This document shows positions 1,479 through 63,100 of a stretch of DNA of 64,000 nucleotides, piece by piece. The number at the start of each line of letters is the position of its first letter. The first letter of the stretch is position 1. The stretch is from an uncultured Ignavibacteria bacterium (lineage in GTDB: Bacteria; Zixibacteria; MSB-5A5; DSPP01; RBG-1). The stretch spans positions 11,158 through 75,157 of the forward strand of contig CAYNPJ010000004.1 of assembly GCA_964399055.1 (NCBI GenBank). The letters run 5' to 3'. Under the pieces are notes generated by a model. The model was not told the origin of the DNA, did no database searches, and worked only from the letters and a program-made list of their open reading frames with translations. A program made the translations under genes and the position numbers.

Positions 1479-4412
1479 TTATCTCTTGAATTTATTTAGA
1501 ATTAATGCCAATTTCCCAGTTATGAAAGGGTGCTTCTCCTTCTCTTTCAATAGATTCAACTTGATTGCGTTTTCCATATTATCCGACCCCCCTAAAGCCT
1601 CAATTGTTGTTCCTTTCCCTCTCCAATTTTCTCTGTCATAAACCTGCCACAAGTAGTTACTAGCTGCCTGAGTTTTAGTTTTCCCCAGAGCTGATATGCA
1701 CAGAAGTCTCTTATCTCTTAACAGAGAATTTTCATATTCCCATTTCAGTTGCCCAACTGCTTTCTCTCCCAATTTACCTAATGCCTCCACTGCCGCCATC
1801 AGCACCGAGTAGTGCGGATCATCCAGAGCATAAATAAGATAATCCACTCCCCGCTCATCCTGCAGTTCCCCTAATGCATAGACCGAAGATTTTCTGACCA
1901 CTTCAACAGAATCAGATAACGCAAAAGCAACCCAGTTAAATGCGGAAGTATCTTTGGCATTTCCGATGGCCGTCAGAGCATATCCCCGCACCTGATAATC
2001 AGGATGATTGAGGATATCTATTAAATAGGGAACAGCGACAGTATCTTTCAGCTCACCCAATACCCGGCAGGCGTTCCTGAGCTTCCAATTATCTTCATTT
2101 TGCAATTCGCCTAATACTGAAGCGACCGGCAAAGTTGCCTCCGGAATTTTGCCTAATATATCCACCAGGGTTTGAATCTCTCTGGCATCTCTGGAATCAA
2201 GTTTCTTAACTAAATAAGGAATGGAATTTTCCTTCATCTCTCTCAGAGCCTGTTTTGCCGGCTCTACCCTATCCAAATGCTCCACATTAATGGCAGTTGC
2301 CTGGATAAAGAGTGAATCCACCAGCACTTTGAGGGATTCATTCTCCGGCTGAGTGGCAGTTTTCATTGCCTTTTCCCAGTCAGCCATATGAAAGGCCGGA
2401 AGGCCTGGCATTTTGAAATGGCGCTCAGTTGTGGATATTGTCTCAGGCTCAGAATAATATTCAGCCAAATCTTCTTCCTTCAAATCCAGCCCTATCCCCC
2501 ACTTTGAGCCAATCGACCACCAGGAGCCTTCTGAGCCATTGCCGGAATAATTATCATTTCCTTTCAAATCTAAAAACAAACCTATCGAGCCAAATTCCCT
2601 TCTGGGATTGCCATAGCCTCGAGTGTTGGATTTCTCTTTAGCGTAATAGCCATCATCCCCGGCCTGGTCAATCAAGATTCCGAAGCCATTTGCATTCCCT
2701 GCCCCTTGGGATAAGCCGTTGGCGTAATAATTATCATTTCCAGCTTTATCTAACAAAATCCCGGCTGAGTAATCATGCCCGCAACCCTGACCAACGCCAT
2801 TGACGCGATAAATGTCATCCCCGGCTGCATCGACTAAAGTGCCTAAAGTCATGTGCGTGCCGCAGCCCTGCGCATACTGAAAGCAGGAGTAGTAGTCATT
2901 TCCTTCTTTATCATACAGCCCTCCCCAGCCCCACCAGTAAGAGCTTCCCTGGCCGAAGATGTCCGCATTGTAGATGTCATTGCCGGAGTAGTCGAAGAGT
3001 AAACCAATACCGCCGGACATATAGGGCCTGATGCCATAGGCAAAACCCTGGGAAAGTGAGAGGTAGTGGTCTTTGTATCTTAAAATGTCCTTGTATTTCC
3101 CTCCGGCGAAGTAATTGTCGCTGCCCGATCTGTCAATCAACATCCCGCAGCCAGCCACAAAGCCGAAGCCCTGAGAGAAAAGCGCGCCATTATATGTATC
3201 CGTGCCTTCCAAATCAATCAATAGTCCCAGACCCCACCCTCCTGCTCCCTGCGTATAAGTGTCTCCGAAATATTTATCATCCCCCTTTCTGTCTATTAAT
3301 ACGCCGATTCCAAACAAACCTGAGCCCAGACTGAAATTCTTACCTATGTATGTATCATTTCCCTCTTCGTCAATGAGAATACTCCCACCAAAAAATCCCG
3401 AGGCAATGGCAAAATCAGACTTCGCTCTGTATATATCATCTCCGCTCAGATCAAGTATTGTTTGCATGCATACCAGAGAATCGTATTCCAGTTCATACAC
3501 GTCATCACCACCCAAATCAATAATCAAGGCAGGACTGCCATAGTAATAAGAACTACCGGTTCCACCAATTAAGATATCACCTATTTTAGTCTTGCCATGA
3601 AAAATGATATCATTCACTTCTTGCTTATTTTCCTCTCTCCACTTAGATCTGTGCGCCTGTTCTTCATTTTCGAAATTTATTGCGGCCTCACCAAGATAAG
3701 CACTTACAAACCACATCCAATGTATCCAATCGAATTTTTCACGGAACTTTGAAATTTGTTTGGCCAGTTCTTCCTCATACTTCTGATTCTGGTCCAGTTT
3801 CTCTGGTGTCTTAAATTGATCATTCACATCTTCCAGAAGTAAAATTGGGGCATTATGCCTTAAGAACATAAAAAGAGAGTCCTGTGGAGGTCGAACATTC
3901 CACACATGTTGCATATATAGAAATAATCGCAGTATGTAATTTGTATCCTTTCCCGTAACCTTCTTGAGGATCTTGTTAGCTTTAAAGAGGTCAGGATACT
4001 CACGCTCAGAGGGCACTCCTTCTAACTCTGTTACATCCCAAGGGTGAGGTTTACGCCTGGGTATTATCTCATTATATTTTTCATGCAAATCTAGTGCTGG
4101 TTCCCAAATAGGATGCGTTAGAAATAGGTCTAACCTTATGTCAGTCATACCACCAAAATTGTAAACAATATCCTTTAGTTCCAGTAAACTCGATATAGTG
4201 AATCCCGGTGTGTGCATAAGGCTATCCATAAGTTTTAGCCTGAAATCGTCCACCTCCGTATAATCATTCCTGAAAGTCAAATCCGCAGGCTTCATCAAAA
4301 GACATTTCAGCCCCAGAGCCAAGGCCGAATCAACTTGAGCGTTATACTTGCTCTGCGCAGACGCAATTCCAAAAAGAAATAGACCGAGCAGAGCAATCGA
4401 CACTTTCCTCAT
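1479..4412 (-). CDS. large secreted multi-domain protein: signal peptide, novel ~270-aa N-domain, ~15 tandem beta-roll/RTX-like 'G-x-L-x-D-x-x-G-N/D-D-x-Y' repeats, C-terminal PBS-lyase-type HEAT repeats
   Basis: ORF 1479..4490 opens with a TTG; an internal ATG at 4412 gives the classic signal peptide MRKVSIALLGLFLFGIASAQS; repeats such as LIDLGGDDVY, LIDEEGNDTY, LIDRKGDDKY, LLDKAGNDNYY, LIDQAGDDGYY; HEAT-like repeats (HPDYQVRGYALTAIGNAKD, DPHYSVLMAAVEALGKLG). Confidence 0.7.
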   Translation of the reverse strand: MRKVSIALLGLFLFGIASAQSKYNAQVDSALALGLKCLLMKPADLTFRNDYTEVDDFRLKLMDSLMHTPGFTISSLLELKDIVYNFGGMTDIRLDLFLTHPIWEPALDLHEKYNEIIPRRKPHPWDVTELEGVPSEREYPDLFKANKILKKVTGKDTNYILRLFLYMQHVWNVRPPQDSLFMFLRHNAPILLLEDVNDQFKTPEKLDQNQKYEEELAKQISKFREKFDWIHWMWFVSAYLGEAAINFENEEQAHRSKWREENKQEVNDIIFHGKTKIGDILIGGTGSSYYYGSPALIIDLGGDDVYELEYDSLVCMQTILDLSGDDIYRAKSDFAIASGFFGGSILIDEEGNDTYIGKNFSLGSGLFGIGVLIDRKGDDKYFGDTYTQGAGGWGLGLLIDLEGTDTYNGALFSQGFGFVAGCGMLIDRSGSDNYFAGGKYKDILRYKDHYLSLSQGFAYGIRPYMSGGIGLLFDYSGNDIYNADIFGQGSSYWWGWGGLYDKEGNDYYSCFQYAQGCGTHMTLGTLVDAAGDDIYRVNGVGQGCGHDYSAGILLDKAGNDNYYANGLSQGAGNANGFGILIDQAGDDGYYAKEKSNTRGYGNPRREFGSIGLFLDLKGNDNYSGNGSEGSWWSIGSKWGIGLDLKEEDLAEYYSEPETISTTERHFKMPGLPAFHMADWEKAMKTATQPENESLKVLVDSLFIQATAINVEHLDRVEPAKQALREMKENSIPYLVKKLDSRDAREIQTLVDILGKIPEATLPVASVLGELQNEDNWKLRNACRVLGELKDTVAVPYLIDILNHPDYQVRGYALTAIGNAKDTSAFNWVAFALSDSVEVVRKSSVYALGELQDERGVDYLIYALDDPHYSVLMAAVEALGKLGEKAVGQLKWEYENSLLRDKRLLCISALGKTKTQAASNYLWQVYDRENWRGKGTTIEALGGSDNMENAIKLNLLKEKEKHPFITGKLALILNKFKR

Positions 4413-6158: not shown

Positions 6159-6881
6159 TTACTTCTTACGTCTTAATCTGGCAAAACCGGCTGCACCTAA
6201 GAGGCCGCTGCCAAAGAGAAATAGAGTGGCCGGTTCAGGCACTTCAGGCGGAGTCTCACACAGGTCGGTGCCGTAAACAAATTTGACGTTCCTGATTTTG
6301 GCGCTGGGGTCAAAATAGGAAGAAATGCCGCTCAAGGTGAATACTACCTGATTCTGGATTAGAGCGTTACTTCCAGTAACCGCGGCATTCCCGGAAAATA
6401 AATTATCTGCGGCAGAGGTGATACCGTATTGCAATCCGTCAGGCGAATCAGGGCCTTGCAGATTAGGGCCCGGGAACCTGTCCCCTGACCCGAACAGGCC
6501 AAAGCCGGCAGAGCTTATGCCGTAGCGACCCAATCCATAGTTAGGAAAGCTGGAACTGTACCGAAAAGCCCACTCTCCGCCTACGTTGCCTCCATTAGAA
6601 GGGCCGTAGAATACAGATGAGCCTCCGCCCAGAGCGGCAGAGACCCTGCTTAGAGATGGATTGTACCTAATGTCGAAGAATACCGCGGTAAGCACTTCAT
6701 TGGGTGCCGTGACGTCAGCTGAGGAAGTGTTAGTCAGGGTGATTTGCAGATTTCCACTGACCACAGCAAATATAGCGCTGGCCGCCAGACTGCCACTGGA
6801 CCAGTTGTAAGTGAAAGGCACAGCCAAAGCCGTACCGCTGATTAATAGGGAAAGTAAAATCCCTGCTTTTATGAGCCTCAT
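6159..6881 (-). CDS. PEP-CTERM domain secreted protein (exosortase substrate)
   Basis: N-terminal signal peptide; C-terminal VPEPATLFLFGSGLLGAAGFARLRRKK (PEP motif, TM helix, basic tail); AGGAGG RBS. Confidence 0.9.
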   Translation of the reverse strand: MRLIKAGILLSLLISGTALAVPFTYNWSSGSLAASAIFAVVSGNLQITLTNTSSADVTAPNEVLTAVFFDIRYNPSLSRVSAALGGGSSVFYGPSNGGNVGGEWAFRYSSSFPNYGLGRYGISSAGFGLFGSGDRFPGPNLQGPDSPDGLQYGITSAADNLFSGNAAVTGSNALIQNQVVFTLSGISSYFDPSAKIRNVKFVYGTDLCETPPEVPEPATLFLFGSGLLGAAGFARLRRKK

Positions 6882-7019
6882 TCTCTCCTCCTGCTGGTTA
6901 GCATCCTGTTTATCTTTTTTTTGTTTCAGGGAGCAAGACTCCGCTTGAGTCCCGCTCTTTTTGGTTGTCTGTCTTAGTTATAAATCCTCATGCCATCCTG
7001 TGGCGTAAATCTTCCAGAC

Positions 7020-7658
7020 TTACTTTTTCCGGCGAAGCTTCGAAAATCCGGCTGCGCTTAGGAGTCCGCTGCCTAAGAGTAACATGGTGGCCGGCTCAGG
7101 AATTTCAGGTGTACGTCCTGGACCATACCAAGCAGTGTTTCCGTCAATCTCTTCTCTGTAGTAACCCCAGTCGAGGTGAACCAGGTATTTGGTAGTGGCT
7201 GGATTCAAATTGCATCCAGTGCCATTGAAGTCTGCCACCAGAACATTGGTGCAATCCCCTTTATGAATATAGTCGACTGGTGACCCGGTATGGGTTCCGA
7301 AAACACCTTTGGGTCTTTCGTAGCCGCCGTTGAAGTCCCAGTTGGCTATGGTAGTAACGCCGGCTGTCGTACCCCACCCAGGAACCGCAGCTTCCAAATC
7401 TGGTCCTTGATTACCGTTCTCCAAATAGACCGCAAGGGCTTTAATTCCACCGACGTTAATGATACCGCCAATTGGGGCTCCTGCATCAACGCAGACCTGG
7501 AAGGTCCAGACATTGGCAGGACCCTGAGTGCCCGTTACTGAAACAAAGCTCAAAGTCCCTGCTGAAGCGTTCAGACTTGGCCAGGGGTCAGCGTTTACGG
7601 TTGCTGCTGTCAAAACCAAAACCAGTCCCAGGATTGCCAGCAGAGTTAACTTCTTCAT
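7020..7658 (-). CDS. PEP-CTERM domain secreted protein (exosortase substrate)
   Basis: Start moved to the internal ATG at 7658 (MKKLTLLAILG..., signal peptide) preceded by AAGGAGG; C-terminal IPEPATMLLLGSGLLSAAGFSKLRRKK. Confidence 0.88.
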   Translation of the reverse strand: MKKLTLLAILGLVLVLTAATVNADPWPSLNASAGTLSFVSVTGTQGPANVWTFQVCVDAGAPIGGIINVGGIKALAVYLENGNQGPDLEAAVPGWGTTAGVTTIANWDFNGGYERPKGVFGTHTGSPVDYIHKGDCTNVLVADFNGTGCNLNPATTKYLVHLDWGYYREEIDGNTAWYGPGRTPEIPEPATMLLLGSGLLSAAGFSKLRRKK

Positions 7659-8932: not shown

Positions 8933-9859
8933 ATGCCTATTTTCAAACTTGCGGAGCTAAACTATCAGGACCTGGAAAAACTCTCGCCCGGTAAAACCGT
9001 CTTTTTTATAGTGATTTCCCCTTTAGAGGAGCATGCTCCCCACCTGCCAGTGGGGACTGACCTCTATATTGCCCGGTATTTTGCCCACCGGTGCGCTGAA
9101 GAGCTAATCCAGAGCCGTCCGGAGTGGAATGTGGTCTTAACCCTTCCCATTCCGGTCGGAGCCAATGTCTTCGAATTCAAAGGCTCGGTCCGACATTCCA
9201 TTCGGACAGTTTATGACGTATTATTAAGTTACGGGAAGGCCATCGCTGAGTGGGGGTTTAAAAACTTGGTCATCATCTCGTCGCATGGCGGAGCCGGACA
9301 CATCTCAGTTTTGGAAGAAGCAGCAATAAGAATCTCCAAAAAGTATAAAATCAAGGCCATCTCTCTTACCGGGGTAATTGCGATTGATTTTCTACAGGGT
9401 AAGTACACCGAACAGATACAGAATGCACTTTACAAGCGTCTGGACGATGAGGACCTCAAACATCTAAAATATGATTACCATGCCGGCTGGTGGGAGACCT
9501 CCATGATGCTTTTGATAAAGCCGGAATTGGTCAGGGAAGAATACAAAGAGCTCCCGCCGGTCCTGATTGAAAGCCCCCTGCAACTGAGAGCCGATGCGGC
9601 CTTGAAATTAGGACAGGGCCTGGGATATTTCGGCACCCCCTCTTTTGCGGATGTTAAGTTGGCTGAGGCATCTTCCAAAGTACTGCTAAGTGAGGGAATG
9701 AAGATTCTGTACCGGTTCTTGGATGGGGAGGATGTGAGCAAGGAAACGCAATCCATTATCTTTAAAAGCTTACTATTCCGCAGAGATTTTTTGAGACTTG
9801 CAATTTCGCTGGCAATTTTTCTTCTTATTCTGATTCTTCTTCTTATCAAATCACTCTAA
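8933..9859 (+). CDS. creatininase-family amidohydrolase (creatinine amidohydrolase/MftE-like fold) with a C-terminal transmembrane anchor
   Basis: Metal-binding motifs LEEHAPHLPVGTD and SSHGGAG typical of the creatininase family; hydrophobic C-terminus LAISLAIFLLILILLLI. Confidence 0.6.
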   Translation: MPIFKLAELNYQDLEKLSPGKTVFFIVISPLEEHAPHLPVGTDLYIARYFAHRCAEELIQSRPEWNVVLTLPIPVGANVFEFKGSVRHSIRTVYDVLLSYGKAIAEWGFKNLVIISSHGGAGHISVLEEAAIRISKKYKIKAISLTGVIAIDFLQGKYTEQIQNALYKRLDDEDLKHLKYDYHAGWWETSMMLLIKPELVREEYKELPPVLIESPLQLRADAALKLGQGLGYFGTPSFADVKLAEASSKVLLSEGMKILYRFLDGEDVSKETQSIIFKSLLFRRDFLRLAISLAIFLLILILLLIKSL

Positions 9860-9975
9860 AACGCTAGATTTTCAATAGCATCAATTCGCTTTCGAGCATT
9901 GTGCAACTCCTTGCACATTCTCTGCTAAACCCTACAGGTTTAAACCCCGACCTCGGATTCTTTGTCACAAAATCT

Positions 9976-9989
9976 AACCGATTTCGGTT
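9976..9989. promoter_or_regulatory. perfect 14-bp palindrome AACCGATTTCGGTT about 110 bp upstream of the sugar-transferase sigma-54 promoter; candidate UAS
   Basis: Read directly; sits in an AT-rich non-coding stretch at the spacing typical of enhancer-binding-protein sites. Confidence 0.35.
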
Positions 9990-10097
9990 TTCTCTCATTT
10001 TTTATAACCTCAAGCTAATTAAGGGATTAGCTAAACGAAGGAACATCTTTATTTTCACATTTTCGACAATATATATATATTTTTCCTCCCCTCCCAG

Positions 10098-10113
10098 TGG
10101 CAGTAGTTTTGCT
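10098..10113 (+). promoter_or_regulatory. sigma-54 promoter TGGCAG-N5-TTGCT upstream of the sugar transferase
   Basis: Plus-strand TGGCAGTAGTTTTGCT with exact GG-N10-GC spacing; lies inside the nominal ORF 9901..11127, whose N-terminal ~75 codons are low-complexity and AT-rich, so it is probably a leader. Confidence 0.6.
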
Positions 10114-10188
10114 ATTGACATAAGTCAAGTTGTAGATGCCGTAAGTTTAACACCCCTTAACAGAGATCGGAAGGTTGGGATAATAGAA

Positions 10189-11127
10189 TTGATAGAGATT
10201 AATATAAGTACAGCTAAACCTGCAGAATCCGGGCAGAAAATTTCTGCTCGCCGGCTAAATCCTGCAGCCAACGGTAGCAATGGCAATGGAAACGGGTCTG
10301 GCCGTCAGAATGGCAGCAACGGCAATGGCTCTGCGCTGACGTCTCGCTATTCCGAACAGGTATTATCCAACGTTTATTTAGCTTCTTACGTTTTCTATAC
10401 CTTTCTGAGAGGCCTGGATGGCGCTCAGCCGGAGGTAAAATTCACGACCCGTCTGAGGTTATCCTGCAAAAGAGTCCTGGATGTATTACTCTCCGGAATG
10501 GGCTTGATTCTGCTCTCGCCACTCTTTTTAATGCTGGCGGTATTAATCAAACTAGATTCAGAGGGGCCGGTTTTTTACAAACAAGAGAGAATCGGGCAGA
10601 ACCGGCGCAAAGGTGACCGGAGACGCTTTCAGTTTGATATGAGCAGCGACCGGCGCTTAAACCGTAACCGGCGACGCGAAGATTATTTTGGGGTGCCGTT
10701 CACAGTTTATAAATTCAGGACCATGCACAAGGACGCCGAGAAAAAGTGTGGGCCTATCTGGGCTACCAAAGACGACCCCCGGGTGACCAGAATTGGCCGT
10801 CTGCTGCGTAAGACCAGATTGGATGAGCTTCCTCAGCTCTGGAATGTGTTTAAAGGGGAAATGTCCCTGGTGGGTCCCCGACCGGAAAGACTTTATTTTG
10901 TCCGCAAATTAGCTCCCCAGGTCAGGAATTATACCATGAGACTTACTTTCAAGCCCGGCATAACCGGACTGGCTCAAGTCGAAAAAGGGTATGACTCCAG
11001 CGTGGGTGACGTTAATAAGAAATTAAAATACGACTTACTATATATTAACAACTGGAGCCTGTGGAAAGATATAAAGATTCTGGTTAAGACCACTCTGGTT
11101 GTGATAACCGGAAAGGGTGCTTTTTAA
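10189..11127 (+). CDS. polyprenyl-phosphate (undecaprenyl-phosphate) sugar phosphotransferase, 'bacterial sugar transferase' family (PglC/WbaP C-domain/EpsB-like); start uncertain
   Basis: KRVLDVLLSGMGLILLSPLFLMLAVLIKLDSEGPVFYKQERIG...YKFRTM...VGPRPE...GITGLAQV. The ORF track starts at GTG 9901, but a sigma-54 promoter at 10098 and no in-frame ATG before 10498 suggest TTG 10189 or ATG 10498 as the start. The product contains an unusual ~29-aa Arg-rich insertion. Confidence 0.75.
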   Translation: MIEINISTAKPAESGQKISARRLNPAANGSNGNGNGSGRQNGSNGNGSALTSRYSEQVLSNVYLASYVFYTFLRGLDGAQPEVKFTTRLRLSCKRVLDVLLSGMGLILLSPLFLMLAVLIKLDSEGPVFYKQERIGQNRRKGDRRRFQFDMSSDRRLNRNRRREDYFGVPFTVYKFRTMHKDAEKKCGPIWATKDDPRVTRIGRLLRKTRLDELPQLWNVFKGEMSLVGPRPERLYFVRKLAPQVRNYTMRLTFKPGITGLAQVEKGYDSSVGDVNKKLKYDLLYINNWSLWKDIKILVKTTLVVITGKGAF

Positions 11128-29959: not shown

Positions 29960-30409
29960 TTACTTTCCGGATATAGTAATCGGAATCTCTTTGGGCTTCA
30001 CTTCTTCAGCCTTGGGTAATTCCACCCGCAGGATTCCATTCTCGTAAGCCGCCTTAATCTTATCCGCCTTGACCATAGTAGGCAGACTGAAGGAGCGGGT
30101 GAAGAAGCCGTAGTTCCGCTCGAGGCGGTGATAATTAGTATCTTTATCCTCTTTCTCCTGGTGCTTCTCACCCCGGATAGTGAGGATGTTATCCTGGACC
30201 GAAACCTTGATGTCGTCTCTCTTCATTCCAGGGAGTTCTAACGAGACCACCACATCATCCTTAGTCTCGTAGATGTCAGTGGCCGGAAGCCACATCCCAC
30301 CATCTTCTATCTGGCGAGTTCCCCGGTCGAAGAAGCCTTCGAACATCCGGTTAACTTCATCCTGTAGATTGTACAGGTCTCTAAATGGTCTCCATCTTAC
30401 TAACGTCAT
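29960..30409 (-). CDS. Hsp20/alpha-crystallin family small heat-shock protein
   Basis: Alpha-crystallin domain (VSLELPGMKRDDIKVSVQDNILTIRGEK...GILRVELPK); AGGAGG RBS. Confidence 0.9.
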   Translation of the reverse strand: MTLVRWRPFRDLYNLQDEVNRMFEGFFDRGTRQIEDGGMWLPATDIYETKDDVVVSLELPGMKRDDIKVSVQDNILTIRGEKHQEKEDKDTNYHRLERNYGFFTRSFSLPTMVKADKIKAAYENGILRVELPKAEEVKPKEIPITISGK

Positions 30410-30450
30410 TTCATGTTCCTCCTTTCTGTCATTTTTGCACTACTATGAAA

Positions 30451-30465
30451 GCAAGTAGTATGCCA
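30451..30465 (-). promoter_or_regulatory. sigma-54 promoter TGGCAT-N5-TTGCT directly upstream of hsp20
   Basis: Reverse complement of 30451-30465 is TGGCATACTACTTGC(T); same -24/-12 hexamers as the PEP-CTERM promoter; contains the ACTACT/AGTAGT inverted repeat. Confidence 0.6.
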
Positions 30466-30667
30466 CAGAGTGTCTGGCCGGTGTGAAGACCTATAACTTA
30501 ATATGTATAAGTAACTTACGGCCAATTTATACCTTGAATGATATTTTGGAATAGTTTTTCATAACTGCCATTTTGACTTAATCAGTAGAATTTGACAGAA
30601 AAATAATGCCGAATTGAATGACTTACTGTATTTCTGGCAGAGGCAAGCAAAAGATCTGATATGAAGT

Positions 30668-31780
30668 TTATCTGAAGCAATATAAATACTTATCTTCTCC
30701 GCCTATATAATATTTCCCATCTCCAAAAGAGGCGGAGGAACTCAGGATACCTTCGGTCTGGAAATCAAAAACAACTTTCCCGGTCTCTTTATTTAAGGCA
30801 TAGAACTTCTTATCAAAAGACCCGAAACAGACCCATTTTCCCACCAAAATTGGAGAAGAGTGAATCAAGCTGCCAGCTTGAAATTTCCAGACCAATTGAC
30901 CGCTTTCTTTATCCAGACAGAAGAGATAACTGTCATTGGAGCCGAAGTAAACTCTGTTTGAGTCAAGAGCGGCTGAACTGTAAATGGCCCCTTCGGTCTT
31001 GAATCTCCAAATCTCCTTTCCTCCCACAGACAGAGCATAAAAAGTCCCATCCTGGGAGCCAAAGTAGACTTTATCTCTGTTCAAAACTGGGCTGGTATGA
31101 ATCCCGCCAGCGGTCTTAAACTTCCAGATTTCATCTCCCTTATCAAGACCGAGGCAATACAGGAAGCCATCCAGGCTGCCGAAGAATATCTTCTCTTCAG
31201 CGACTGCTGGAGCAGAATGGACAACGTCTCCGGTCTTAAAGCTCCACAGCTCTTTCCCACTGTTCTTATCCAGACAGAACAACTTGCCTTCTCCGGTTCC
31301 GGCTAAGAGCCGGTTGCCTGCCAACACCATGGGACCAGTGACTTCGCCTAATTTAGCCTCCCAGAGCATGACTTCCTGCACAAAATTGAAGGCATAGAGC
31401 TTCTTGTTCTTAGGAGTAGCAAAAAAAATAACATCTCCAGATAGGCAGGGCGTGGTCAATACCATTCCGGGCAGGGAAAGATGATTGATTTTAAGCCCGG
31501 TTAAAGCATTGACAAAATAGAGCTTCTTTTCGGCAGTGCCGAAAATGACGGTATTCCCTCTCAATAGAGGAGTCGTGGTAACTGCCCCGCCGGCCTTGAA
31601 TTTCCACAAAAGACCGCTGGGAGAAGGAACTTCTTTCTCTAAGCAGGCGGAATTAGTCAGATCGTTTCTGAAACTTGCCCAAAAAACCTGGCCGGTGCCT
31701 AAGTTCCGGGGATGAAACTGGAAGCCTCCTGCGCAGGAGAGGATTAAACCGACTAAGAATATGACCCCTTTTTTAATCAA
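30668..31780 (-). CDS. PQQ-like beta-propeller repeat protein (BamB-like fold), secreted
   Basis: Signal peptide; repeated '...G.LY.LD..TG...W.F.T' PQQ-type blades. Confidence 0.7.
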   Translation of the reverse strand: MIKKGVIFLVGLILSCAGGFQFHPRNLGTGQVFWASFRNDLTNSACLEKEVPSPSGLLWKFKAGGAVTTTPLLRGNTVIFGTAEKKLYFVNALTGLKINHLSLPGMVLTTPCLSGDVIFFATPKNKKLYAFNFVQEVMLWEAKLGEVTGPMVLAGNRLLAGTGEGKLFCLDKNSGKELWSFKTGDVVHSAPAVAEEKIFFGSLDGFLYCLGLDKGDEIWKFKTAGGIHTSPVLNRDKVYFGSQDGTFYALSVGGKEIWRFKTEGAIYSSAALDSNRVYFGSNDSYLFCLDKESGQLVWKFQAGSLIHSSPILVGKWVCFGSFDKKFYALNKETGKVVFDFQTEGILSSSASFGDGKYYIGGEDKYLYCFR

Positions 31781-45001: not shown

Positions 45002-46195
45002 TCAGAGCATGTCCACTGCTAAGGCCACGGCGTTTCCTCCGCCCAGACATAGAGTGGCTAATCCCCGCTTGCCGCCTTTATCTTTCAGCGCGTAAAGAAG
45101 TGTGGTTAGAATTCTGGCGCCTGAGGCTCCAATCGGATGTCCTAAGGCTACGGCACCGCCATGAACGTTGACCTTCTTCCAGTCCCAACCGAGCTCTTTG
45201 CCATCGGCTAAGCACTGGGCTGAGAAAGCCTCATTAGCCTCAACCAGGTCAAATTGATTGATTTCTTTATTACCGAGCTTGTCCATCAAACTGCGAACCG
45301 CATAGATAGGGGCATAGAACAACAACTCCGGCGGTGTTCCTGCGGTGGCGTAGTTAACGATTTTGGCTATTGGTTTAATCCCTTTCTCCTTAGCTTTGTC
45401 TGCGGACATGACCACTAAGGCAGAAGCGCCATCGTTTAATCCTGGAGCATTGCCGGCAGTCACAGTCCCATCCTTCTGGAAAGCCGGTCTCAGTTTAGCT
45501 AAGGTTTCCATCGAAGTATTCGGCCTGGGCCCTTCGTCGGTGTCGAAAATTATGGGGTCGCCCTTCTTCTGAGGTATGGATACGGGGACAATTTCTGCCT
45601 TGAATTTGCCTGCTTTTTGCGCGGCCACTGCTTTCATATGGGAGTTGTAAGCGTACTCATCCTGCTGTTCCCTGGTAATATTGGACTTCTTGGCAGTCAA
45701 TTCTGCTGCATTTCCCATATGGAAGTTATTGAAAGAATCCCACAGGCCGTCTAATATCATTGAATCCAAAAGAGTCTGGTGCCCGAACTTGAAACCTCCT
45801 TTAGCGCCATGCAGAACATATGGCGTTGAAGACATCGACTCCATCCCTCCGGCTACAATTATGTCGGCATCTCCACAACGAATAGCCTGAGCGGCCAGCA
45901 TAACTGCTTTCAAACCTGAGCCGCAGACTTTATTTATTGTGACTGCGCCTTTTTCAGCCGGAATCCCAGCATGAATGGCCGCCTGACGGCCAGGCGCCTG
46001 GCCAGCTCCGGCTTGGACCACGTGGCCCATTATTACTTCATCTACATCTTCCGGTTTAATTCCGGCCCGGTTGACTGCTTCTTTGATGACAATCGAGCCT
46101 AATTGCGGCGCGGTAAAGGACGCCAGGCCGCTCAAAATGTTACCTATGGCTGTCCGACAGGCGGACACTATTACTGCATCTCTTAATTCTGGCAT
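45002..46195 (-). CDS. acetyl-CoA C-acetyltransferase (thiolase II)
   Basis: Thiolase catalytic Cys context (VNKVCGSGL), NVHGGAVALGHPIGASG, C-terminal CLGGG. Confidence 0.93.
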   Translation of the reverse strand: MPELRDAVIVSACRTAIGNILSGLASFTAPQLGSIVIKEAVNRAGIKPEDVDEVIMGHVVQAGAGQAPGRQAAIHAGIPAEKGAVTINKVCGSGLKAVMLAAQAIRCGDADIIVAGGMESMSSTPYVLHGAKGGFKFGHQTLLDSMILDGLWDSFNNFHMGNAAELTAKKSNITREQQDEYAYNSHMKAVAAQKAGKFKAEIVPVSIPQKKGDPIIFDTDEGPRPNTSMETLAKLRPAFQKDGTVTAGNAPGLNDGASALVVMSADKAKEKGIKPIAKIVNYATAGTPPELLFYAPIYAVRSLMDKLGNKEINQFDLVEANEAFSAQCLADGKELGWDWKKVNVHGGAVALGHPIGASGARILTTLLYALKDKGGKRGLATLCLGGGNAVALAVDML

Positions 46196-46224
46196 GACAA
46201 CCTCCTATTTATTTAGGACTATTC

Positions 46225-47034
46225 TTATTTGATTTTATCAATATCAAAATCATTTCCTTTAATCTTTCGATTTAGAAGATAAATTTCATCTATGTTTTTG
46301 TGAACATTAGGGCCCTCTTGAACCATAAGTTTCATTGCATTTGGTTCAGGAAAGGAGTGACCTTCACGACTATTAATAGCCAACAAGATGGTTTTCTTGC
46401 CCTCTTCTTTTGGGATTGCTAACTTTGCGTTATTGTCAAGAATTACTGCTCGCAGAGCATTATTACCTATTTCAGTGCCTATACCAATTCCATACCCTCC
46501 ATCTGTGTTAGACAAGATCAATATTCCAGGCTTTGCTGCGTCGACCACACTTAAGGAACAGTTTACTCGTAAGGTGTCGTTCAACTTGAGTGTCCTGACT
46601 ATTCTTTGAGGGTTATCTATATTTTCATATGCGGTAGTCATCCATTTCAGTAACTCGGTGACCCTAGCTTTACATTCTGTACTCTCATCTCTCAAGGGTA
46701 CTCTATTAAAATCTATATTAAATATATATTCCTTGGTAGGTGTAAATTCTTTAGAAAGTTCGCGTCGCAATTCTTCTACAAAATTCGCATATATATTGGA
46801 ATCCCTCATATCAGCTTCGCTTTTGTAGATTCCACCTAGCTCTACGGCTAATGAAGGGTCACGCCCATATTGTTCTTGATAAAGAAAATCATATGTTCCA
46901 TTGATCTGCTTGGAGATTGGGTCAGTTTTATCCTCTGGTCTACACTTAAATTGATACTCCATGCCGTTTCGTTTGTTATAATACACTATGAATTTATCCA
47001 CTTGGAATCTTTCTTCCACATGCTTAAGCGCCAT
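46225..47034 (-). CDS. hypothetical protein, compositionally foreign (about 35% GC) ORFan inside the CoA-transferase/thiolase operon
   Basis: Uninterrupted 270-280 codon ORF with GAGGGG SD before ATG 47034 (alternative TTG 47067 overlaps the atoA-like stop); no recognisable motif; AT-rich codon usage unlike its neighbours. Confidence 0.55.
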   Translation of the reverse strand: MALKHVEERFQVDKFIVYYNKRNGMEYQFKCRPEDKTDPISKQINGTYDFLYQEQYGRDPSLAVELGGIYKSEADMRDSNIYANFVEELRRELSKEFTPTKEYIFNIDFNRVPLRDESTECKARVTELLKWMTTAYENIDNPQRIVRTLKLNDTLRVNCSLSVVDAAKPGILILSNTDGGYGIGIGTEIGNNALRAVILDNNAKLAIPKEEGKKTILLAINSREGHSFPEPNAMKLMVQEGPNVHKNIDEIYLLNRKIKGNDFDIDKIK

Positions 47035-47063
47035 TTTCCCCTCTTGAAATACACCGTTGCTTG

Positions 47064-47732
47064 TCAAATCTCCATCTCCTTCACATCCGGCGCCACCACA
47101 AAGTCTGCTTCTGTGGCTTTCTTTACATCATCAACCGTGACTCCAGGAGCGGTTTCTTTTAGCACTAATTTCCCCAGATTGTAATCCACGTCCATCACTG
47201 CCAGCTCACTAATAATACGATGAACCACTTTTTTACCCGTAAGAGGAAGGGTGCACTTTTTCAGAATCTTCGATTTCCCCTCTTTGGTAACATGCTGCAT
47301 CATCACCACCACTCTCTTGGCACCGGCCACCAGATCCATGGCTCCCCCCATCCCTTTGACCATCTTGCCCGGAATCATCCAGTTGGCCAAATTTCCTTCC
47401 TGGTCTACCTCCATGGCCCCTAAAATGGTCAAGTCAACATGACCCCCTCGAATCATGGCAAAAGAGTCAGCTGAAGAGAAAAAAGAAGCGCCGGGAAGAG
47501 TAGTGACAGTCTGCTTGCCGGCATTGATTAAATCCGGGTCCTCTTCTCCTTCATAAGGGAAGGGTCCCATCCCCAAAATACCATTTTCGGATTGAAAGAT
47601 AATCTCCATGCCGGGCGGGATGTGATTGGAGACTAAGGTGGGCATGCCGATGCCTAAATTGACGTAATAGCCGTCTTTTAGCTCTTTAGCCGTTCTTAGG
47701 ACGAGTAGTTCTTTGCTCGATACGCTTTTCAT
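47064..47732 (-). CDS. 3-oxoacid/acetate CoA-transferase subunit B
   Basis: [31 protein letters not shown]...; start set at ATG 47732, which overlaps the end of the A subunit by 47 nt. Confidence 0.85.
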
Positions 47733-62752: not shown

Positions 62753-63100
62753 GAGCCAGAGCAGGCCGTAAGCCGAGTTCTGTTTGGGTCATCATCTATC
62801 TGGGCCGACTGTCGCCAGCCGGCTCAAGCGGCCTACCCGGAAGTAATAGCGGAACAGGCTCTTCCTTCTTCCTTATTTGGCCTTGCTCCAGGTGGGGTTT
62901 GCCAGCCCCCGATATCACTATCGGGGCGGTGGTCTCTTACACCACCCTTTCACCCTTGCCCCGAGCTAGTCGGGGTGGTCTGGTCTCTGTGGCACTTTCC
63001 ATATTCTTGCGAATCCCTGGGATTACCAGGCGCCCTGCCTTAGGAGCTCGGACTTTCCTCCCCGATGACTATCGGGGCGATGACCTGGTCTGCTCCGGCT
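62753..63100 (-). ncRNA. rnpB: RNase P RNA, bacterial type A
   Basis: Minus-strand sequence carries GGAAAGTCCGAGCTCC, AAGGCAGGGCGCCTGGTAATCCCAGGG, GTGCCACAGAGACCAGACC, AGGGTGAAAGGGTGGTGTAAGAGACCACC, CACCTGGAGCAAGGCCAAATAAGG, GGGTAGGCCGCTTGAGCC and ACAGAACTCGGCTTAC; P1 pairs the 5' GCCGGAGCAGACC with the 3' GGCCTGCTCTGGC. Ends are approximate to about 10 nt. Confidence 0.93.

Follow-up and report, generated by a model that had tools for sequence, protein, structure and literature searches.

An AT-rich guest gene in a Zixibacteria acyl-CoA operon has a predicted PD-(D/E)xK-like domain and distant relatives inside REP/RAYT loci

We analysed a 64,000-nt stretch of DNA from an uncultured Ignavibacteria bacterium that GTDB places in the Zixibacteria (GenBank assembly GCA_964399055.1, contig CAYNPJ010000004.1, positions 11,158 to 75,157 of the forward strand; hereafter the window), and in it a low-GC open reading frame (ORF) lodged between the gene for CoA-transferase subunit B (ctfB) and a thiolase gene. 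The explanation we favour, with moderate confidence, is that this guest ORF is a vertically kept gene derived from a REPtron, with a PD-(D/E)xK-like N-terminal half and a product directed at nucleic acids. A REPtron is, by the published definition, a REP-associated tyrosine transposase (RAYT) gene flanked by GT[AG]G repetitive extragenic palindromic sequences (REPs) (Quentin 2018, PMC6006769). The mobile-element origin is proposed because relatives of the guest ORF sit inside loci of REP hairpins and RAYTs. The ORF is a genuine protein-coding gene, single-copy in the window and in every locus read, and can be written in two forms (coordinates here and below are those of the window unless a locus is named):

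46225..47034, minus strand: guest ORF, ATG form, 269 aa (ORF listing and sequence)
46225..47067, minus strand: guest ORF, TTG form, 280 aa (ORF listing, and homolog alignments reaching 47067)
46225-46227, minus strand: TAA stop of the guest ORF (sequence)

A preliminary description, made from the sequence alone, had reported an ORF of 270-280 codons, in agreement with these two forms. It is the single long minus-strand ORF between the ctfB and thiolase genes, and the 280-aa product of the TTG form is identical to database protein P0001. The compositional anomaly noted at that stage is real: the ORF has a GC content of 37.0% (0.46, 0.32 and 0.33 at the first, second and third codon positions: GC1, GC2, GC3), 200-nt windows along it range from 31.5 to 43% GC, and the lowest-GC 810-nt stretch of the 64 kb falls on it (36.7%, minimum at 46201; the mean over 810-nt windows is 48.1%, standard deviation (sd) 2.8%). 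Among the 46 long ORFs of the window it is the strongest outlier (z about -4), with a GC3 of 0.338 vs a mean of 0.553 (sd 0.056) and a GC of 0.372 vs a mean of 0.484 (sd 0.028). The flanks had been put at 55-58% GC; the seven neighbouring genes actually have 46-52% (GC3 0.52-0.65) and the immediate flanks 48-52%, which brings the contrast to about 11-15 points, not about 20. Milder low-GC stretches lie at approximately 3061-3920, 9321-10580 and 30091-31270 (41.6-42.0% GC in 810-nt windows), none of them near the 36.7% of the guest ORF.

All readable homologs with 38-100% identity to the window protein are found in the same slot, in the order CoA_trans A, CoA_trans B, ORF, thiolase, acyl-CoA dehydrogenase (ACAD), ACAD, aminotransferase (loci L001, L003, L004/L005, L010/L011, L012, L013 and L095). 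The slot is occupied in all six other related lineages retrieved (38-67% identity), and in every lineage the ortholog lies 6-15 GC points below its own flanks. Amino acid identity to the window, given first for the ORF and then for the flanking genes, is 63% and 86-96% in L003, 67% and 89-91% in L010, 52% and 79% in L012, 46% and 69-84% in L095, and 39% and 65-84% in L004. When the window was compared with L003, the ORF gave a non-synonymous divergence (dN) of 0.265, a synonymous divergence (dS) of 1.22 and a ratio of the two (omega) of 0.22, vs dN 0.020, dS 1.29 and omega 0.015 for the thiolase; the flank dS values (ctfB, ctfA and thiolase) span 0.78-1.34 and match that of the ORF. Overall, the dN of the ORF is 7-13 times that of the flanks, and its dN/dS is 0.18-0.28 vs 0.015-0.045 for the flanks of close pairs. 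As the dS of the ORF equals that of the flanks, the ORF co-diverged with its neighbours. Its low GC3 has outlasted more than one synonymous substitution per site; the low value is therefore a state that is maintained, and the ORF is not foreign DNA that has yet to ameliorate. Residence in the ctfB-thiolase slot predates the split of at least seven lineages, and the ORF evolves fast even though purifying selection acts on it.

The borders of the ORF within the operon are as follows:

47064..47067, minus strand: TTGA overlap of ctfB stop and ORF start (ctfB TGA at 47064-47066, overlapped by the TTG at 47067)
46196..46224, minus strand: 29-nt spacer between the ORF stop and the thiolase ATG (46195), with an AGGAGG thiolase ribosome-binding site and no REP or hairpin

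An AAGGAG Shine-Dalgarno sequence lies 8 nt upstream of the TTG, inside the ctfB 3' end. The junction ATTTGAC is common to five lineages (the window, L003, L095, L004 and L013); it reads ...GAGATTTGAC..., and in each the TTG start overlaps the ctfB TGA. The TTGA overlap is a probable site of translational coupling from ctfB to the guest ORF. The 280-aa TTG form, coupled to ctfB, is the likely product because the TTG/TGA overlap is common to the five lineages and the alignments reach 47067. No terminator or promoter around the guest ORF in the window exceeds chance, and since, in addition, its start overlaps the ctfB stop, the ORF is very probably expressed with the operon. Joint transcription had already been proposed in the preliminary description, which also placed the ORF on the same strand as its neighbours, 29 nt from the thiolase and in contact with the CoA-transferase stop; the sequence bears out each of these points.

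Distant homologs, 25-32% identical to the window protein, come from other Zixibacteria lineages. Context could be read for five of them, and four of these five adjoin a Y1/HUH protein of 150-200 aa. These Y1 proteins pass the NCBIfam REP-associated tyrosine transposase equivalog NF047646 (87-106 bits vs a cut-off of 80), and the RAYT gene was found at L094, L098 and L100-L104. The spacers at these loci contain hairpin doublets of ~60 nt (GTAGGGACAGGGCTTGTCCCTGTCC...GGACAGCCACAAGGGCTGTCCCTAC), which have GTAG as their 5' foot and fold, as DNA, with energies of -21 to -24 kcal/mol. REPs are present on both sides of the homolog at L094, L096, L098, L100 and L103, with the following gene orders:

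L100: ECH, REP, orf197, REP, RAYT, REP, homolog, REP, biotin carboxylase
L103 and L098: as L100, minus orf197
L096: REP, homolog, REP, with the RAYT gone
L094, a different locus with reversed gene order: AIRS, REP, homolog, REP, RAYT, Thiamine_BP

The L094 RAYT is only 30-33% identical to the other RAYTs and is accompanied by a different REP family (CGTAGGGGCGGGTC...). The REP/RAYT loci of the distant homologs are embedded co-directionally in acyl-CoA operons, with one homolog outside any acyl-CoA operon; on these contigs (up to 21 kb around the family genes) the REPs concentrate at the RAYT/homolog segment.

Several features of these loci were recorded along the way. Lineages in which the RAYTs are only 63-72% and the ORF homologs 37-66% identical have 25-nt REP arms without a single difference (100% identity; L096 7914-7970; L098 1784-1840; L100 7363-7419, 7911-7967 and 8809-8865; L103 7257-7326 and 8805-8867), which implies that the REP sequence is strongly constrained or homogenised. 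The homologs, too, are fast-evolving: between L096 and L100 their identity is 39%, compared with 94% for the carboxyltransferase. Directly upstream of the L100 RAYT is a 197-aa ORF (6759-7352), with a REP on each side and no match in Pfam or NCBIfam. In the window's own slot, the L012 ortholog is bracketed by REP-like double hairpins of ~55 nt (TGTAACGCCCCATTTTACATGGGGCGTACGTCCCGCGTAAAGCGGGACGTTACA), and the next spacer downstream in L012 has no REP-like element. At L012 524-641 the REP-like element is found together with an apparent partial duplicate of the ctfB 3' end (GATATGGAAGT...AGAGGAATATAAGTTTGACAC), which gives a new ribosome-binding site.

At the level of sequence profiles the preliminary description was right that no motif can be assigned: the window protein has no match in Pfam or NCBIfam (at E up to 1 and 10), PADLOC or PHROGs, Pfam and NCBIfam searches with 17 members yielded no family in common, the profile search against PDB sequences was empty, and Foldseek against the PDB gave nothing significant. 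The AlphaFold2 (AF2) model built from 17 family members (pLDDT 83.5, pTM 0.73) consists of two consecutive alpha-beta-beta-beta-alpha-beta units, and the following features can be placed on the gene:

46705..47034, minus strand: predicted N-terminal PD-(D/E)xK (restriction-endonuclease-like) core, residues 1-110 in ATG numbering
46840..46935, minus strand: putative metal-site acids E34 (46933-46935), D49 (46888-46890) and E65 (46840-46842)
46834-46836, minus strand: Gly67, at the position of the canonical ExK lysine, in the window clade
46228..46704, minus strand: C-terminal alpha/beta half, residues 111-269, with conserved PKxEGKKTILL, H245 and I-D249-E250 and no confident fold match

The modelled N-terminal unit follows the alpha-beta-beta-beta-alpha-beta topology of the PD-(D/E)xK core: helix 2-23; strands 27-31, 50-54 and 62-69; helix 73-96; strand 102-109. 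Likenesses to NgoMIV, SdaI, NucS, NucC, Shedu and Hjc were seen at lower scores. In the 27-member alignment (A3), which has six invariant columns and about 19 nearly so, no member deviates at D49 (where beta2 begins) or E65 (in beta3), and E34 is conserved in at least 90%; D49 and E65 fall at sites of the canonical D...(D/E)xK motif. In the larger sister ('EEK') subfamily most members read E65-E-K67. The window protein reads E65-L-G67 and lacks the catalytic D...(D/E)-x-K motif in beta2/beta3, position 67 being G or A throughout the window clade, and an alternative lysine, K71, is mostly, not always, conserved. Assigning the N-terminal half to the PD-(D/E)xK fold is reasonable but not proven by the model, and the residues at this site make catalytic competence in the window clade doubtful.

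We propose that a RAYT/REP element, with the gene as its passenger or partner, brought it into acyl-CoA operons. The window clade would then have lost the RAYT, the REP brackets (kept only in the ortholog L012) and the canonical catalytic lysine, and the gene would persist as a guest, expressed via operon read-through and translational coupling to ctfB. Its likely activity would be metal-dependent binding or cleavage of nucleic acids, possibly of REP-like hairpin DNA, via E34, D49 and E65, and a role in acyl-CoA chemistry is unlikely. A selfish gene had been among the preliminary suggestions; a mobile or selfish origin is indeed plausible, with the distant homologs inside REP/RAYT loci, and it is the recency attached to that suggestion that falls away (see below). 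A bolder form of the proposal, to which we assign a low probability, is that the family is a second protein component of the RAYT/REPIN system, a nuclease-fold partner of the HUH tyrosine transposase on REP hairpins. The RAYT would then move REP-bracketed cassettes between operon slots, and in the window clade the partner would have outlived the RAYT, lost the catalytic lysine and been exapted with coupling to ctfB.

Several observations weigh against a REPtron origin and a nuclease-like role. A tblastn search with five RAYTs of related loci detected no such gene in the 64 kb of the window (best E = 0.017, over 19 aa) or in L001-L013 and L095. Hairpin doublets are likewise absent from the window, as are the three REP types. 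The case for a REPtron is therefore built on relatives at 25-52% identity, and usable context is available only in about five sister-clade and seven window-clade lineages. In L012, the one ortholog of the slot with REP-like elements, these lack the canonical GT[AG]G and, given the partial ctfB duplicate in the spacer, seem to have been inserted secondarily. Finally, with Gly in place of the canonical Lys in the window clade and K71 not invariant, the protein may not be catalytic.

The distribution of the family bears on what the gene could be doing in its operon. A sequence search of 5.8 billion clustered proteins returned 6 homologs, an exhaustive one of 1.8 billion representatives returned 14, and a family profile matched 22 clusters of the 5.8 billion. 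All members have 215-280 aa and none has a Pfam domain; the only named ones are the proteins KPL01117.1 and MDH4223423.1, from Zixibacteria metagenome-assembled genomes. Scanning GTDB species genomes with the family alignment gave no relative, and there was none in IMG/VR contigs, phage genomes or plasmids. Among the matches listed, a family member was present in 0 of 80 thiolase-anchored loci (GTDB species genomes) and 0 of 80 ctfB-anchored loci (JGI metagenomes); these loci belong to relatives at most 77% identical, mostly named as other phyla where named. The family is tiny and restricted to Zixibacteria, and the initial impression of a compositionally foreign ORFan in a metabolic operon is borne out: the operon is otherwise widespread, the ORF is lineage-restricted, and all 160 listed loci of other lineages lack a relative. 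One further candidate, P0014 (1181 aa), was rejected: in its alignment to ORF residues 160-203 the segment VDAAKPGILILSNTDGGYGIGIG was matched eleven times via the repeat 'DAAKPGTLTISTSDVGYY', and the match is probably due to chance or low complexity, summed over repeats.

The nearest named relatives of the window thiolase are also from Zixibacteria (85% and 78% identity). In a neighbour-joining tree of thiolases the ORF-bearing lineages form two sister clades, one of which also holds thiolases P0036-P0044 (80-88% identity to that of the window; in several cases from contigs of 1.3-4.1 Mb), and no ORF homolog of those lineages was found in protein databases. Judged only from these missing database proteins, this suggests secondary loss of the ORF or a presence-absence polymorphism in the P0036-P0044 lineages, in which case the gene would be dispensable.

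The main rival explanation sees in the product an accessory, scaffold or regulatory subunit that is specific to the lineage, has no catalytic activity and works with CoA-transferase, thiolase or biotin carboxylase in the acyl-CoA machinery. The neighbours of the gene in every lineage are CoA-transferase, thiolase, acyl-CoA dehydrogenases, methylmalonyl-CoA mutase and carboxylase subunits, and this recurring context, together with the coupling to ctfB and a weak similarity to the ACC central domain, speaks for such a subunit. On the other side stand the narrow distribution, with no co-occurrence with ctfAB or thiolase beyond one lineage among the listed loci, the tenfold higher dN, the REP/RAYT association and the homolog outside acyl-CoA operons, and we consider this explanation unlikely.

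Other small guests occur in the same operons of the sister clade. Genes of PF05635/TIGR02436 ('23S rRNA intervening sequence protein', Avd-like) are found at L100 10426-10773 and L103 2491-2952, in two slots (biotin carboxylase/BCCP and HMG-CoA synthase/thiolase), both co-directional, with a GC3 of 0.36-0.43 vs about 0.55. Like these four-helix-bundle genes, the RAYTs and the homologs are AT-rich vs host genes. The occurrence of such small AT-rich guests in variable slots, the 197-aa ORF among them, would fit a selfish operon hitch-hiker unrelated to the RAYT (a toxin-like or addiction nuclease, or a former homing gene), hard to lose once installed and with AT-rich borders at which REPs gather. 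The secondary appearance of the L012 REPs and the persistence of the ORF without a RAYT in L096 and in the whole window clade point the same way. Against it, neither a conserved antitoxin-like partner nor a second small ORF stands beside the guest ORF in the window or the orthologous loci, and the gene is single-copy everywhere read. Moreover, the adjacency of homolog and RAYT recurs at two loci, with opposite gene orders and two REP families, and is therefore hard to explain without a functional or mobilisation link. An unrelated hitch-hiker thus seems to us improbable.

The reading first put forward, that of a recent acquisition (an accessory gene, for instance a nuclease for defence or abortive infection), has become very improbable. 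The same slot and the same GC offset recur in seven lineages, with flank identities that go down to 65-84%; the preliminary description had itself named an ORF of similar composition at the same position in relatives as evidence against its proposal, and this is the arrangement in the six other lineages. In all lineages retrieved, ctfB is followed by the ORF and then by the thiolase, and not directly by the thiolase. The dS of the ORF, about equal to that of the flanks and above 1, leaves ample time for amelioration, the ORF is under purifying selection, and the ctfB junction is shared among lineages. The borders carry no signature of mobility: direct or inverted repeats flanking the guest ORF do not go beyond chance-level matches of 10-11 nt, which also answers the suggestion to look for direct repeats there, and no tRNA, integrase or transposase adjoins the ORF in the window. 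Rfam and tRNA scans found no RNA gene near it and no tRNA in the 64 kb; the sole Rfam match in the window is a bacterial class A RNase P RNA (62754-63096, minus strand, 289.6 bits). As for a defence role, the 27 members give only two single-member PADLOC matches (E 0.0015 and 0.012), neither of them meaningful, and none that is meaningful in PHROGs, and there are no partner genes, no defence-island context and no relatives on phages, plasmids or viral contigs.

A decaying ORF or a gene-calling artefact in an AT-rich spacer, which the fast evolution, the low GC, the loss of the canonical catalytic Lys and the lack of a known family might have suggested, is scarcely credible given reading frames intact in all 27 members (no frameshifts despite saturated synonymous divergence), the dN/dS range given above, the invariant and near-invariant columns and the confident AF2 model.

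The genes on either side of the guest ORF are identified by Pfam:

47064..47732, minus strand: CoA-transferase subunit B (ctfB), upstream neighbour, 222 aa (CoA_trans, E = 3e-53)
45002..46195, minus strand: acetyl-CoA C-acetyltransferase (thiolase), downstream neighbour, 397 aa (Thiolase_N, Thiolase_C)

Genes A and B of the CoA-transferase share 47 nt (47686-47732 in the window), an overlap that recurs in orthologous loci such as L003 (9336-9382) and L004 (8096-8142). Positions 18277-63998 of the window form a near-continuous co-directional array on the minus strand, about 45 kb long, with genes for a carboxyltransferase, biotin carboxylase, BCCP, methylmalonyl-CoA mutase, epimerase, a thiolase-like/DUF35 pair, ctfAB, thiolase, two ACADs and a branched-chain aminotransferase.

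As regards the window, the practical gain is small: the gene is best annotated as a member of a Zixibacteria-specific family with a probable nuclease fold, and as neither a component of the acyl-CoA pathway nor a defence gene. A methodological warning follows from its history, namely that a strong low-GC anomaly in an operon can be a stable trait of a vertically inherited guest and not the mark of a recent transfer. Beyond the window, a nuclease-fold gene beside RAYTs at two independent loci would, if the association is true, be the first candidate partner protein of RAYTs; this possible lead rests on a dozen metagenomic contigs. How RAYTs and REPs or REPINs are maintained, and what part they play for the host, is still an open question (PMC5581495; PMC6006769). 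A partner, if it exists, would make the question of RAYT/REP maintenance testable through the biochemistry of REP hairpins.

Compared with known systems, the protein is closest in predicted fold to the PD-(D/E)xK superfamily, for which the members compared were the CdiA-CT toxin nuclease (4g6v), SfsA (4dap), the catalytic domain of PaqCI (8em1), HamA (8vxy) and Hjc (1gef). It differs from the superfamily in having no Pfam or PDB profile match, no significant Foldseek match and Gly in place of the ExK lysine, and in its extra 160-residue C-terminal half with conserved motifs of its own. A restriction-endonuclease-fold protein beside a recombinase or transposase has an analogy in Tn7 and the fdxN element; as there, the family's protein is encoded beside, and conserved with, such an enzyme. 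With the PF05635/TIGR02436 guests the ORF shares its AT-richness, its lineage-specific occurrence and its co-directional position between operon genes of Zixibacteria. Unlike the PF05635 guests, whose slot shifts between close lineages, it keeps its slot, and fold and sequence are unrelated. It also stands apart from defence systems (Shedu, Hachiman, CBASS NucC/Cap4, Abi), the window protein having 0 PADLOC matches. The RAYT (TnpA_REP) and REP-REPIN system was reportedly worked out by Nunvar in 2010, Bertels and Rainey in 2011 and Ton-Hoang in 2012. RAYTs are single-copy and vertically inherited (PMC6006769; Bertels 2017, PMC5581495). As in REPtrons, the loci of the relatives hold one RAYT passing NF047646 among REP doublets with a 5' GTAG foot, and they are vertically inherited. 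REPtrons have been described with the RAYT only, and in the literature we found no report of a nuclease-fold partner of RAYTs or of a second such gene inside REPtrons; here, in contrast, a second conserved gene lies in the REP array and is bracketed by REPs even without the RAYT. The window copy departs further from REPtrons in having neither REPs nor a RAYT. Altogether, the comparison suggests that the guest ORF encodes an uncharacterised member of the PD-(D/E)xK fold class, as predicted by the model, in an unusual setting: a second conserved gene of a REPtron, here apparently orphaned.

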